Below, piece after piece: positions 64 to 22,611 of a stretch of 64,000 bases of DNA (the first letter of the stretch is position 1; each line of letters begins with the position of its first letter). The DNA lies in IMG/VR virus record IMGVR_UViG_3300031418_000003; one strand, written 5' to 3'. The stretch comes from a virus (taxonomy: Duplodnaviria; Caudoviricetes). The position numbers were made by a program, and so were the translations under genes. Below the pieces are notes generated by a model. That model saw only the letters and a program-made list of their open reading frames with translations, had not been told where the DNA came from and made no database searches.

Positions 64-2241
64 TTAGTAACCAGTGTGTGGATTTTGTTTTGGGTTGTGT
101 GCTCCATTAGCGATTACAACACGACGCAGAGATTGAAACTCTTTGAAAGCTTCATCCTGAGTCAACCGCTTAGTGAGATCGCGAATATGATGAAACTGAC
201 GCCCACCGGGTGCATCGGGTAAATCATGACTGAACATAAAACGGGTGAGACCAGGACTCCACGTCATCTTATATTCACAGAAGAATTCACCTTTCACATC
301 GTGAATGATGAAACTCTGGTTAATAACAGCATGAGTGGTCGTTTCGATTTCTGAAACTGTTGGTTTTGGTTCAGGAGTACTATGCGGTGTGCCGTGAGTG
401 GCAATAAACTTAAACAGCTCGGTAAGTTTATTGGATTCTTGAGAACGGGCTTTACCTAACCCAGGATTAATAAATACATTACTTCCTTTCTCAGTTAACT
501 CAATACCCACGACGAGATCAAGCAGGCGTTTTTGATATTCACTGATTTTCTTTCCGTGTACCGGACACTCTGGATTTTTACATTCACCATTCAGTGTTGC
601 CGGATCAACGCCAGTTAGACCTTTGAATGTACCATCCAGTTGTCTGGCGAGTTCTTCAATTTTGTTAAAGTGATCCATACCTGTTTTACGCTGCCCGAGG
701 TTTTCGTTTAAACGAGATTTAAAGGTTGGCGGAATCTCCAACATTTTTACGAGCTGAGTAAAATTAGAGATAGATTGAGTATTACTCAATATCTCCTTAA
801 TAGAAGGTTCTTGTTCCGGTGATTCAACCGGCTTGACTTTGCCGAGATCGACCTTGAACATCGCCGCCAATTCCTGAACCATTGGATCTTCAGGATTACC
901 CTTGATGATCACCCCAGTTCTTTTGTCTTCAGGCAGTTCGTATCTGAAGGAAGGTTTCGGTAGATCTGTGAGACCCAACCCTTTAACATGATGAGAAAGA
1001 ATAGCATTGATGTTTTCTTCTGACTCGTCGCCCGAAACTTTAATTGTTTCATAGGCTTCTGGGTGCGCGGCTTTGATCAATTGCATGTAGAGTGAATCTT
1101 TCACCGGTTCTTCCTCTTCGGTTAAATTTGGGTATTGTGGGAACGAAGGCATTGGATCTTCTTCTTTCTTAACTTCAGTTTTTACAGGGTTAGCGATTTT
1201 ATCAAACATCTCGTCCAGAATCATACCACGCTTACGACGATCGAAGTCATTGAATACAGGGAAGTATTCTGCATCGATGATGATTTCTCGGCACAGGCGT
1301 CGTTGATGCGGGGAACGATGAATCACTGATTTCAGAGTACCAATCTTATCTACGTCACCGGCACGAATTTCGTTGATCAGTTTTAGAATCAACCGAGCTT
1401 CGTTGGCAAAGCGAGATAAAGAATCGTCCCATTTGAATAATGGACCAGTCAAGTGATTAGTTCCCATAAATTGGACATATGGTTCTGCGGGAGGATGCTT
1501 CGATTTCATTTTCTCTAACATTATTGTTGTGACTTCTTTTTGGGTATGTTCCATGAAGCGTTCTTTGATGGTTGCCTTAACCTGATTAAAACGAGCTTGA
1601 TCGATATCCTTAACATACACTAACTGTTTAAAATATTCTTCGCCAAACATTTGTTTTACAAATGCCACCTGAAGGTATGGATACTGATCGAGGATACGAC
1701 CGAGCTTATCGACGTACTTCTCGTAGTGGGTCAGATCTTTAGCAGTGCTTGCTTTTTCACAGTTTTCACAAGCTGCTTTAAACGCGTTCTCCACACTTTT
1801 GTATCCGACATGAAGACCTTTCGATTCAATCCGCAGAGTTAGGTCGATAAAGTAACCTGCTTTGGTCAGGAGACCATCGATAATAGCTGGCCAATCCATA
1901 AGCGAATATTCCTGTTTAGGATCTCGGTTAAAGAGTTCTTTATACAGATCAATGATATCTTCGAACTTCTTAGCTTCAATAAAAGAAGCAATCAGGTCAC
2001 GAACTTTTTCAAATTCATGAATTCCAGTTTTGCTGTCAGTGCACTGCTGAAGATGACCGGATTCTGGAATATTGAAGGTATTCATAATACGGTCAGACAA
2101 CCCGCCTGATTTACCACCATAGTTGGGAAACTCACAACCTTCTCTCAAACCAATTTTAACAATACGTGAAACAACATAGCGCTGAATTAAAGTTACATCT
2201 ACCATAATACATTTCTCCGACATAAAAAGTAAGGGAGTCAA
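64..2241 (-). CDS. Hypothetical protein, 725 aa
   Basis: Long ORF followed by a terminator; no motif recognised; start uncertain. Confidence 0.8.
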   Translation of the reverse strand: MTPLLFMSEKCIMVDVTLIQRYVVSRIVKIGLREGCEFPNYGGKSGGLSDRIMNTFNIPESGHLQQCTDSKTGIHEFEKVRDLIASFIEAKKFEDIIDLYKELFNRDPKQEYSLMDWPAIIDGLLTKAGYFIDLTLRIESKGLHVGYKSVENAFKAACENCEKASTAKDLTHYEKYVDKLGRILDQYPYLQVAFVKQMFGEEYFKQLVYVKDIDQARFNQVKATIKERFMEHTQKEVTTIMLEKMKSKHPPAEPYVQFMGTNHLTGPLFKWDDSLSRFANEARLILKLINEIRAGDVDKIGTLKSVIHRSPHQRRLCREIIIDAEYFPVFNDFDRRKRGMILDEMFDKIANPVKTEVKKEEDPMPSFPQYPNLTEEEEPVKDSLYMQLIKAAHPEAYETIKVSGDESEENINAILSHHVKGLGLTDLPKPSFRYELPEDKRTGVIIKGNPEDPMVQELAAMFKVDLGKVKPVESPEQEPSIKEILSNTQSISNFTQLVKMLEIPPTFKSRLNENLGQRKTGMDHFNKIEELARQLDGTFKGLTGVDPATLNGECKNPECPVHGKKISEYQKRLLDLVVGIELTEKGSNVFINPGLGKARSQESNKLTELFKFIATHGTPHSTPEPKPTVSEIETTTHAVINQSFIIHDVKGEFFCEYKMTWSPGLTRFMFSHDLPDAPGGRQFHHIRDLTKRLTQDEAFKEFQSLRRVVIANGAHNPKQNPHTGY

Positions 2242-19987: not shown

Positions 19988-20608
19988 ATGCAACTTAAAT
20001 TAATTACATTCGACAAAAACAATTATTCAATCAGTACTCAGTACATTGAGCTAGATGGCCTAGCCATTGTCGAGTACCGTTCTCCGATCACCGGTGAATT
20101 TTCTCCCAGTAACACCCAAATCCCGTCGATAACTGATCCCTCTATAATTGCAGTTATTATCCAGAATAGCTTTGCTAAAGCTGAACCTATTCAAATAAGC
20201 AAGCACCAGGGTGCTTATTTAACGGATTCCGGTAAAACGATGGAGGTGATTAACAGACCTTCAGACTTTGACGATATCCAAATTTGGATCAAGTATGATA
20301 AAGAAGAGGGAAACTGGGAACGCGAAACTCTCAGTAGTTATATGGACGAGATTCACTATCGACGTCTGGAGTATAAATATTTAGTTTCTCCCCAAGGAAT
20401 GAATCCAGAAGAAGTGGAGAAACAGATTTCCCTTACCATGGAGGTTGGTAAAAGCGTACTTTGGAGCCGTTATATAAAAGGTACGTCTTTAACTTTCAAA
20501 CTTTCCAGCCAATTCGAATATGACCGGTTCTACAACGACCCAGATTACCAGTTCATCAAAGTTCCGGTTGGTGTCGACCCTAACACGCAAGGGTTTAAAC
20601 TTACATAA
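19988..20608 (+). CDS. Hypothetical protein
   Basis: ORF, 206 aa. Confidence 0.75.
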   Translation: MQLKLITFDKNNYSISTQYIELDGLAIVEYRSPITGEFSPSNTQIPSITDPSIIAVIIQNSFAKAEPIQISKHQGAYLTDSGKTMEVINRPSDFDDIQIWIKYDKEEGNWERETLSSYMDEIHYRRLEYKYLVSPQGMNPEEVEKQISLTMEVGKSVLWSRYIKGTSLTFKLSSQFEYDRFYNDPDYQFIKVPVGVDPNTQGFKLT

Positions 20609-20629
20609 GTATATTATGTAATTCAATCG

Positions 20630-21645
20630 AGTGTAACTGTTTGCTGTTCTGAGGAATAGCATGGTTTCATTACCCCGTTATATTCGACTGTAAGACCCTC
20701 GTTATCCAGGTGTGGGTACATAACGAGGGCAAACCAGCAGGTTGCACTGCTGGACTAAATCCAAGAGTGAAAGCTGGCTTAAGTCCAGTAAAAACTAAGT
20801 AGCTCTTGGTGGGCGATGCAATAGTTTGAAAACTACTGTGTCATAGCAACGCGTCTAAAGTAAACGGTCCCTTCGTATAAGCTCAATACACTTTGGCGTC
20901 CGCGCCGAAGAAATAAGAGATGAACCCGAAACACTCTCAGGGACCCCTCTTCGGAGATAATAGCTTTAGAAACGGGAACGTTGTGCCCATTCCTTAACGA
21001 TGGTTATCCGTCGTTATCCCTTTGTACCAGTGGCTGATATCCAAGTAGAGCTTTAATTATACCTGACGGATAGCGCTCACAGTGTTTCAACCATTGGTAC
21101 AACCTCTTGAGGATCTTGAACGAAAACCGTAGGGTAACCGCTGAGCACATTGCGTTGCATTCAAGGCGGCTGTAGCAGGAGACTGGGTAGTCTTCCTGGG
21201 TGATATCAAGATCCTCAACCTTATCTACTCTCCGTGATATGGAGTAGACAAACCCTGTGGTGGGGGCATCGTAACCATCTGATGAGTCCGCGATGTAAAA
21301 AACAATGAGACGAAACGGGTTCTGTCAAAGGGGACTCCAACTCCAGACAGATCCGTCATGAATCGCTCCGCCTTAACTGTGAAGAGCATCCTCAGTCTAC
21401 GATTCTAGAGGAACAGCAGCGCTACCTGCAAAGGACCATTGGCAAATGGGATCTTAGGGTTAGCAAACAGTCCGCTCCTTTTGCCAGAGGAGAAGTTGTC
21501 AAAACCAAGAGGTGTAGACAGCCTTTAGTTCACTGTAGTGAAGAATCGGGGTTGCTCCCGTAGTAGTCACGAACAGTGATCTTTAGAGTGTTTACCGGAT
21601 AACAATATCGTACGCCCCTACCTCCTCACGGGGGTAGGGGTTTAT
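20630..21645 (+). ncRNA. Large (~1 kb) structured non-coding RNA with an embedded hammerhead
   Basis: ORF-free; nested long-range helices join 5' and 3' parts; ends at a terminator. Confidence 0.7.
21259..21372 (+). ncRNA. Type I hammerhead ribozyme
   Basis: CUGAUGA 21279-85, stem II GUC/GAC, GAAA 21312-15, stem III 21316-26/21346-55, GUC cleavage triplet 21355-57, stem I with loop-loop pseudoknot. Confidence 0.88.
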
Positions 21646-21646
21646 G
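21615..21646 (+). terminator. Terminator hairpin (CTAC/GTAG family)
   Basis: CCCCTACCTC-ctcacg-GGGGTAGGGG then TTTATGTTT. Confidence 0.75.
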
Positions 21647-21756
21647 TTTGGCTTTTCATTTGATCATATGAGCTCGTTCCATATATGTCCTAGGATGGAT
21701 GATATATGAAACATCTTATTATAGTTAATAAGACTATTTCGAAATAGAGGTAACAT

Positions 21757-22611
21757 ATGAGTTTGAGTAGCCCTGTCGATTTTGCTATCGACTATGTAAT
21801 GAACGGTCCAACCGATATCTCGGAATATCTGTTGAAGTTGGCCTTTCACAATCCCAATAACGGGTACGGTGGCATCTGGGGAAATCCCAATGACTCCTTC
21901 TCTGTAGAGCAGGGTATCCGTGAAAAAGTCATCGCCAAGATGGTTGCGCCGTTACTTCAGGTAGCCGGTGGTCAAACTGAGATCATTGATTTGTCCGGTG
22001 CACAGATTGAGAATTTAGCAGGCGGTGTTATTTGGGTTTCAGTACCCGACTTCATGACCGGTGGTCGTCGTATCATCGAGGTAATCGAAGTCTACCCAGG
22101 CAATATCAATCGAGCGGTTGCTAACGGTTATAATTTTGGCAGTGCTGCAACTTGTGGTGGCGGGGCAATCAATAACTCGCTGAGCCGATTGATGACTGGA
22201 TTAACAGACAGTAACGTTACTCGTTCTTTCAACAGCTTTACTATTGTTGGACCCAACTCTTTCCTGATTCGTGATGCGGGTTCGGCAATGTTTAACATGA
22301 TCGCCAAAGTGGTTCTCTCCTATGACGAGAGCTTTAACGGCGTACCTGTTAAGATGTTTGATAAGTTTGCTGAGTTAGTTGAACTCGGTACCAAAGCTTA
22401 CATCTATAAAACTTGCCGTCGCGGGATGCAAGAAGCAGTCTCTCGTTTTGGTGTAACTGTAGATGATGTCCAAGATGACATTCAGGGATACTCCGATGCT
22501 GCTCAGCAGTTCAAAGAGTTCTACAACGACAAGATGAAGAAGTACATGGCTTATGCTGATGCCAAAGGTAAAACCGACCAACTTAAAATGATTGTTCCAA
22601 GGAAACGATAA
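21757..22611 (+). CDS. Conserved phiKZ-like virion structural protein (putative)
   Basis: Position in the late cluster upstream of terL; GAGG RBS. Confidence 0.6.
   Translation: MSLSSPVDFAIDYVMNGPTDISEYLLKLAFHNPNNGYGGIWGNPNDSFSVEQGIREKVIAKMVAPLLQVAGGQTEIIDLSGAQIENLAGGVIWVSVPDFMTGGRRIIEVIEVYPGNINRAVANGYNFGSAATCGGGAINNSLSRLMTGLTDSNVTRSFNSFTIVGPNSFLIRDAGSAMFNMIAKVVLSYDESFNGVPVKMFDKFAELVELGTKAYIYKTCRRGMQEAVSRFGVTVDDVQDDIQGYSDAAQQFKEFYNDKMKKYMAYADAKGKTDQLKMIVPRKR

Follow-up and report, generated by a model that had tools for sequence, protein, structure and literature searches.

The locus and its structured RNA

The window analysed here, a stretch of 64,000 nucleotides of viral DNA, contains a long gap between genes that aligns across 12 phages as one family, made up of a leader, a body, a hammerhead motif, the hairpin P4 with a 3' domain, and a terminator. 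Leader and body together amount to about 650 nt and the 3' domain to about 270 nt, the whole RNA measuring about 1 kb. The parts of the locus outside the ribozyme are the following, in window coordinates.

20609–21756, plus strand: ORF-free gap of 1,148 nt between a 206-aa ORF and a 284-aa ORF
20609–21252, plus strand: leader and body of the RNA, ORF-free, with conserved blocks and many covarying helices in 9–12 phages
21361–21613, plus strand: 3' domain of the RNA, with conserved blocks in 9 phages
21614–21641, plus strand: strong intrinsic terminator, its arms CCCCUACC... and ...GGGGUAGGGG conserved family-wide, followed by a U-rich tail

The leader carries the invariant motif UGUAAGACC (20689–97 in the window), which lies 450–600 nt before the hammerhead core across the family, while the helices of the body include a covarying one of 11 bp that pairs GAGGAUCUUGA with UCAAGAUCCUC. 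The conserved blocks of the 3' domain are ACAGCG, CAAACRGUC, GAAGUUGU and GUAGACAGCC. The GTATATTAT-type motif before the RNA, a putative promoter, has no repeat elsewhere in the window.

The whole gap is 82% identical to that of Erwinia phage AH04 (262 kb, phyllosphere), which has the same gap and no CDS annotated there, and a search of sequencing runs locates the DNA of the window in metagenomes of plants and of the phyllosphere. The protein encoded downstream has homologues in 180 phage records, including those of OBP, EL, RisingSun, N1M2 and pEt-SU, some of these homologues carrying the annotation of virion structural protein; both OBP and EL encode chimallin and form a phage nucleus (PMC10299810). 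Upstream of the RNA, tRNA genes on the same strand are found in Kc263, Yubaba, N1M2, Survivor, OBP and the contig L087. In Yubaba and N1M2 the RNA directly follows a tRNA-Met, and in L087 a tRNA precedes it by about 600 nt. ARAGORN detects no tRNA in the window itself.

A type I hammerhead motif

The initial annotation had described a complete type I hammerhead ribozyme in this gap, and direct reading of 21247–21392 finds all of its core boxes, its three stems and its GUC triplet in place. The elements of the ribozyme and of the two hairpins that flank it are listed in 5' to 3' order.

21253–56 / 21263–66, plus strand: P0, hairpin 5' of the ribozyme, loop GUGGUG, 4/4 pairs changed on both sides
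21267–21272, plus strand: 5' pseudoknot strand CAUCGU, located in the linker that joins P0 to stem I; its partner is GCGAUG at 21290–95
21276–78 / 21358–60, plus strand: stem I, CAU/AUG, 3/3 pairs covarying, 100% of alignment cells paired
21279–85, plus strand: core box C3-U4-G5-A6-N7-G8-A9, CUGAUGA, invariant in 13 homologues except at N7
21286–88 / 21309–11, plus strand: stem II, GUC/GAC, three invariant pairs including G10.1–C11.1
21312–21315, plus strand: core G12-A13-A14-A15.1, GAAA, invariant in 13 homologues
21315–26 / 21346–56, plus strand: stem III, 11 pairs with U21321 bulged, from A21315–U21356 out to C21326–G21346
21330–33 / 21341–44, plus strand: distal helix of stem III, four pairs, 4/4 covarying
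21334–40, plus strand: loop of stem III, ACUCCAA, 7 nt, with a conserved YUCCA motif
21357–21358, plus strand: predicted cleavage site, after C17 (C21357) and before A21358, positioned from hammerhead geometry
21365–69 / 21383–87, plus strand: P4, first hairpin of the 3' domain, 4/5 pairs covarying

Read from the order of these elements, the topology is that of type I, the strand entering and leaving via stem I with stems II and III capped. The loop of stem II measures 20 nt in the window and holds the 3' strand of the pseudoknot, and the GUC triplet occupies 21355–57. A minimal hammerhead descriptor, which combines both core boxes with three short helices and a U-H site, matches exactly this one place when the two strands of the 64-kb window are scanned, and 200 dinucleotide-preserving shuffles give no match.

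The comparison with Rfam proposed in the initial annotation returned no family at all at gathering score anywhere in the window, and no hammerhead model at that score in the loci of OBP, Yubaba and pEt-SU. By E-value, the best Rfam match in the gap is Hammerhead_3, aligned to the shared core with 16.6 bits (E = 2.8) at a threshold of 48.5; E-value scans of the gap and of the loci of nine relatives yield only this weak Hammerhead_3 core match together with tRNAs. Metagenome sites that have the same hammerhead core pattern likewise go unreported by Rfam at gathering score. Since the gathering score is an operational cut-off set by curators rather than a biochemical criterion, such a miss says little.

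Homologues and covariation

Homologues were taken from IMG/VR contigs and GenBank phages, in which the sequence preceding the structural-gene homologue was used, and from pattern scans of viral and metagenome contigs. The 13 homologues, which belong to OBP/AH04/pEt-SU-like jumbo phages, comprise the window, AH04, three IMG/VR contigs, OBP, pEt-SU, Kc263, Yubaba, N1M2, SXP01, Survivor and one metagenome contig. A covariance model spanning the hammerhead and its two flanking hairpins, R1, scores them at 75–146 bits, as against at most 31 bits for pattern-matched unrelated metagenome hammerheads. In the R1 alignment, standard pairs fill 91.9% of cells, compared with 37–48% when the partners are slid by 1–3 columns, and pairs changed on both sides number 21 of 31, compared with 4–9 in the slid controls; no shuffle attains the observed pairing or covariation values. 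All six helices of the model covary.

Against this variation the catalytic nucleotides C3, G5, A6, G8, A9, G12, A13, A14 and C17 are invariant in the 13 homologues, and the core is kept in every hammerhead-bearing relative found, the loss of core nucleotides in close relatives being what the initial annotation had named as evidence against the ribozyme. At N7 the homologues have U, C or A, and variation at this position of the hammerhead is expected. The pair A21315–U21356 (A15.1–U16.1), which closes stem III, is A-U in 13/13 homologues, as the CCGUC of the cleavage site is invariant in 13/13. Stem I, in contrast to such fixed positions, occurs in the variants UAU/AUA, CAG/CUG and ACC/GGU; a fourth pair of stem II, a mismatch in the window, covaries as C-G or U-A in relatives; and stem III combines four invariant proximal pairs with five covarying distal ones. 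A search for a kissing partner of the YUCCA motif found no consistently placed Watson–Crick complement. The UGG of the P0 loop is a candidate for this role, but the contig L087 has a GAAA loop there.

The complementarity between 21268–72 and 21290–94 that had been pointed out earlier is present, and covariation lengthens the pairing to 6 bp (21267–72 / 21290–95). In a MAFFT alignment that was started at the 5' element, and hence was not fitted to the structure, 97.4% of the cells of the pseudoknot are paired and four of its six pairs are changed on both sides, pair 1 being C-G, U-A or G-C, pair 2 A-U, G-C, U-A or C-G, pair 3 U-A or C-G, and pair 6 U-G, U-A, A-U or C-G. Pseudoknots are an established way in which natural hammerheads hold stems I and II together, and about 40% of hammerhead representatives are predicted to use one (PMC3088659).

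The surroundings of the pseudoknot differ from those first assigned to it. Its 5' strand had been placed in an internal loop of stem I and is instead a single-stranded linker that leads from P0 to the 3-bp stem I, because the bases of the putative outer stem I form the local hairpins P0 and P4. That outer stem (GGGGC 21263–67 / GCUCC 21365–69) is paired in 67% of cells among the 13 homologues, which equals the shuffled and slid controls, and displays no excess covariation, the G run assigned to it being taken up by P0. P4 has a conserved loop, GCCUUAACUGUGA (GCCUUAACYGUGA). This hairpin is absent in pEt-SU and Survivor and reduced to a loop-like remnant without a stem in SXP01, all three of which keep the hammerhead, and it is present in the Aeromonas phage pAEv1810, where the hammerhead core is absent; judged by this distribution, P4 is outside the ribozyme proper. 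Two further candidates involving P4 were discarded: CACAGU (21078–83) as a partner of its loop, which fits the AH04 group but finds no covarying CACGGU in the OBP group, and a weak R1 match in pAEv1810 as a degenerate hammerhead, which consists of the leader motif and P4.

The initial annotation had further seen the ribozyme as one arm of a larger multibranch RNA. Its embedding in a conserved RNA of about 1 kb holds, but a closing helix is not demonstrated: the long-range helix 20636–45 / 21462–71 of a companion note is broken in OBP, Kc263, Yubaba and N1M2, and 20686–91 / 21467–72 (6 bp, from alifold), which alone among the candidate enclosing helices is conserved, displays wobble changes only. 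If formed, this candidate helix could hold the cleavage products together after the cut. The reading as a complete type I hammerhead with a pseudoknot is thus supported by the invariant core, the covarying stems and the covarying pseudoknot, and the earlier observation as a whole is partly confirmed, the hammerhead being, on comparative grounds, genuine.

Distribution and loss of modules

The ribozyme always terminates the same large RNA module and is absent where this module is absent. AH04 has a single copy per genome; the hammerhead is missing from the whole records of D6, ZPAH34, EL and RisingSun, as well as from the locus of the homologous gene in AhC3_1. Among the genomes of 185,579 species of bacteria and archaea, one per species, an exact-pattern scan matched 12 times, and by the model none of these matches is related.

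The distance from the cleavage site to the 3' arm of the terminator is 261–343 nt in nine phages and 39–42 nt in pEt-SU, Survivor and SXP01, so that the predicted cleavage in the latter three would remove little beyond the terminator hairpin. When the adjacent structural protein is used for a maximum-likelihood tree, one starred clade consists of pEt-SU and Survivor, and another holds SXP01 together with Yubaba and N1M2; the two clades being separate, the 3' domain has been lost at least twice. The core, stem I and the pseudoknot are intact in the lineages that lost the 3' domain, and this retention of the hammerhead links the ribozyme to the body that precedes it. The opposite case is seen in the Aeromonas phages pAEv1810 and AhC3_1, which have the core of the 3' domain but not the hammerhead, and which indicate that the 3' domain can exist as a separate RNA. 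Such relatives without a hammerhead show that the 3' domain does not depend on cleavage.

Relation to known ribozymes and structured RNAs

The phage hammerhead resembles other type I hammerheads (Rfam Hammerhead_1 RF00163, clan CL00010) in its core of CUGANGA, GAAA and GUC with C17, in the pairs A15.1–U16.1 and G10.1–C11.1, and in having three helices round the core, with stem I open and the other two capped. Unlike in Hammerhead_1, however, stem I of the phage ribozyme has only three pairs, with a separate hairpin alongside, loop II extends over 17–22 nt, and stem III is an extended hairpin of 40–45 nt with the YUCCA loop. With pseudoknot-stabilised hammerheads (Perreault et al. 2011, PMC3088659) it shares a Watson–Crick link of 4–6 bp from the stem I side to the stem II side in place of loop-loop contacts, as well as a constrained spacing of the pseudoknot, the linker of the phage hammerhead being 2–3 nt long. 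The best-studied pseudoknot hammerheads are nonetheless of type II, with loop I paired to a tail 3' of stem II (PMC3088659), whereas the phage hammerhead has its 5' strand in the linker upstream of an open stem I and its 3' strand within loop II. Like the hammerheads of PaP3 and Bcep176, it is phage-encoded and intergenic (PMC3088659). Those two have been described as free-standing or clustered, in contrast to the jumbo-phage hammerhead, which is a positionally conserved module of a structured RNA of about 1 kb.

HDV-like ribozymes cut at their own 5' edge and are then discarded. The theta ribozymes, which are HDV-like, offer a parallel in that, according to their description (PMC10879173), they too are a self-cleaving class of phages linked to a non-coding RNA, in their case a tRNA, rather than to an mRNA; they differ in ribozyme class, and the phage hammerhead is predicted to stay on the mature product. 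The RNA that carries the hammerhead is comparable to GOLLD and ROOL (bioRxiv 10.1101/2024.12.08.627333) in being large, highly structured, phage-encoded and, in relatives of the window, situated beside tRNA islands, GOLLD env-38 itself lying downstream of a Met-tRNA (same source). The covariance models of GOLLD and ROOL have no match at E up to 10 over 20600–21900, and the GOLLD/ROOL paper makes no mention of a hammerhead. Literature searches turned up no paper connecting hammerheads to jumbo phages or to the RNA of about 1 kb. As judged by its sequence, the ribozyme itself is a complete type I hammerhead of the ordinary, pseudoknot-stabilised sort and represents a new lineage; the novelty is its context, a fixed position within a large structured RNA of chimallin-type jumbo phages.

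Proposed mechanism and alternative explanations

The locus probably encodes a functional type I hammerhead that cuts a phage RNA of about 1 kb after C21357 and whose selected role is to give the body RNA its 3' end. That the motif is catalytic, when it would cut and which end groups it would leave are predicted here from the established properties of hammerheads, and the biological role is likewise one that we infer. Built from a 3-bp stem I, a stem II of 3–5 bp and a long stem III, the ribozyme should have its stems I and II clamped by the 6-bp pseudoknot, as in other fast natural hammerheads, and would fold and cut after C21357 as soon as transcription has passed through the AUG strand of stem I. 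The body RNA would retain the whole ribozyme as its 3' end, and cleavage after C21357 with a 2',3'-cyclic phosphate at that nucleotide is the most likely outcome, while the downstream piece from A21358, which comprises the 3' domain and the terminator, would be released with a 5'-OH; in phages without a 3' domain only the terminator would be released. As only three pairs of stem I join them, the products should dissociate, except if the helix 20686–91 / 21467–72 is real. Defining the 3' end of the body in this manner would split one transcript into two RNAs.

Self-cleaving formation of a 3' end is the best supported role because the ribozyme co-occurs with the body, always ends it and persists before a bare terminator. 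Hammerheads in phage intergenic regions and hammerheads stabilised by pseudoknots are both established (PMC3088659), and the theta ribozymes beside phage tRNAs provide a precedent for the maturation of a non-coding RNA by a phage ribozyme (PMC10879173). Counting against the proposal are the shortness of stem I, at 3 bp, the scores of the Rfam models below threshold, the relatives whose 3' domain does without a hammerhead, and the candidate helix 20686–91 / 21467–72, through which the two products could stay associated.

The same arrangement could alternatively serve the downstream product, the ribozyme mainly making the 5' end (5'-OH) of a stable small 3'-domain RNA and its effect on the body being incidental. 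P4, the hairpin with which the 3' domain opens, follows the cleavage site at a distance of 7 nt, this domain stands alone in the Aeromonas relatives, and in six public runs of RNA or possibly RNA all contig pieces lie 3' of the cleavage site, at 21372–21721, except for one at 20739–20870. These positions are compatible with a stable 3'-domain RNA but prove nothing, since the runs provide short assembled contigs only, at depths of 2.6–5.5, which show neither the ends of an RNA nor its abundance. Two lineages without the 3' domain, moreover, keep an intact and covarying hammerhead directly before the terminator, and phages that have the 3' domain but not the body are also without the hammerhead, and we consider it unlikely that the downstream RNA is the main product. 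A different kind of doubt concerns catalysis itself, as the very short stem I and the conservation of the stem III loop and of the flanking hairpins, as if these contacted a larger fold, would also suit a hammerhead-shaped structural scaffold within the large RNA that has lost cleavage. A scaffold, however, would need neither the exact catalytic core nor the GUC site, and in the 13 homologues every catalytic nucleotide as well as A15.1–U16.1 and G10.1–C11.1 is invariant while the helices vary freely, a pattern that makes the loss of cleavage highly improbable.

Accepting cleavage, the cut might prepare a ligation, in which the cyclic-phosphate end and the 5'-OH would be joined by the reverse reaction or by an RtcB-type ligase, the body being circularised or joined to another RNA. 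The type I topology leaves the ribozyme on the cyclic-phosphate end, an arrangement suited to ligation (PMC3088659), and RNA ligases have been reported in jumbo phages (PMC13282480). Against such joining, which seems very unlikely, there is one hammerhead per genome, no second self-cleaving motif appears in the Rfam E-value scan of the gap or in the scan of the window with R1, and the public runs, which are contigs only, contain no back-splice joints. Because the RNA lies directly upstream, and on the same strand, of a conserved block of structural genes, the ribozyme could also insulate the downstream virion-protein operon by cutting transcripts that read through the terminator; yet a strong conserved terminator already stands between ribozyme and gene, about 480 extra bases come between the two in three metagenomic relatives, and in most phages the cut falls 260–340 nt ahead of the terminator, away from where read-through would occur, leaving insulation scarcely credible. 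The probability that the motif arose by chance or belongs to a protein-coding gene is practically negligible: there is a 54-aa ORF on the minus strand at 21225–21389, and in Kc263 an annotated CDS covers the homologous site, but the descriptor finds no match in the 200 shuffles, the substitutions are compensatory for RNA pairing, and the window and AH04, which is without an annotated CDS there, differ within the hammerhead region by indels of 1 and 2 nt that break the frame.

Implications for jumbo phages

Definition of the body 3' end by self-cleavage may be part of a larger picture, which we put forward tentatively and with less than even confidence, in which the hammerhead is the built-in 3'-maturation device of a new class of large ornate RNAs in chimallin-type jumbo phages, a counterpart of GOLLD and ROOL beside tRNA islands, and in which cleavage is required for the function of the RNA. 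If this were true, cleavage might free the RNA from polymerase and terminator for assembly, or might serve export from the phage nucleus or the protection or ligation of the cyclic-phosphate end, and a phage or bacterial hammerhead would have been assigned a biological role, which is rare. The role of bacterial and phage hammerheads, of which many are known, has been unclear since the catalogue of 2011 (PMC3088659), and for one phage hammerhead the genomic architecture now points to a role. Cultivable phages permit a direct test, namely AH04 on Erwinia billingiae, OBP on Pseudomonas fluorescens and N1M2 on Klebsiella aerogenes.

The analysis also flags a family of structured RNAs of about 1 kb in nucleus-forming jumbo phages that is without an Rfam match. 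In some deposited genomes, parts of this family are mis-annotated as protein genes.

Extent and module combinations of the large RNA

The entire gap at window 20609-21645 is occupied by a conserved RNA, about 1 kb long, highly structured and without open reading frames. Its parts are the leader (UGUAAGACC), the body, the 3' domain and a terminator common to the family, and no match to this RNA was found in Rfam. Related jumbo phages carry three combinations of its modules: the full RNA, a form without the 3' domain, and a form without the hammerhead. Aeromonas jumbo phages of the last kind retain the 3'-domain core, consisting of CAAACNGU, a covarying hairpin, GAAGUKGU and GUAG..., which suggests that the 3' domain, upstream of the structural-gene block, is a small RNA that is either older or independent.

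In contigs of related phages assembled from sequencing runs X30 and X31, four segments of the RNA give way to unrelated sequence that is about as long or longer (two of the replacements have 79 and 547 letters), the hammerhead region remaining colinear despite these replacements elsewhere. Within the large RNA, the replaced segments represent variable arms or sites of insertion. Beyond the terminator, approximately 480 additional bases precede the structural gene in three IMG/VR relatives (L003, L004 and L005), and are absent from the window and from Erwinia phage AH04.

Features of the large RNA and its surroundings
Window 20717-20836, 20893-21020, 21499-21518 and 21595-21658: segments replaced in X30 and X31 contigs
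L013:1560-1880: 3'-domain core, pAEv1810
L018:2780-2990: 3'-domain core, AhC3_1
L009:1821-1897: tRNA-Met, Yubaba
L010:1816-1891: tRNA-Met, N1M2
L087:846-917, minus strand: tRNA, metagenome contig
L008:2533-2724: 'hypothetical protein' CDS QYN80068.1, Kc263
L010:1871-2383, minus strand: 'hypothetical protein' CDS N1M2_252, N1M2
L059:335-389 and 566-619, minus strand: twister-P5 ribozyme and generic hammerhead match, metagenome contig

The terminal loop of stem III

In its terminal loop (window 21334-21340 and the equivalent loops of homologues), stem III keeps a YUCCA motif, as ACUCCAA, UCUCCAG or AUUCCAG, with GCCA in SXP01, and the stem itself covaries. A Watson-Crick partner for YUCCA was sought and none was consistent; the motif may make a tertiary or protein contact.

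Neighbouring and overlapping annotations

In Yubaba and N1M2, a tRNA-Met gene lies immediately 5' of the large RNA start, and the L087 tRNA shares the strand of the hammerhead and precedes it by about 600 nt; ARAGORN detected no tRNA in the window. The deposited CDSs overlapping the hammerhead in Kc263 and the body in N1M2 are probably annotation artefacts.

The unrelated contig L059 shows the clustering that is common for self-cleaving ribozymes, its twister-P5 ribozyme (59 bits, above threshold) lying approximately 180 nt from the generic hammerhead match.
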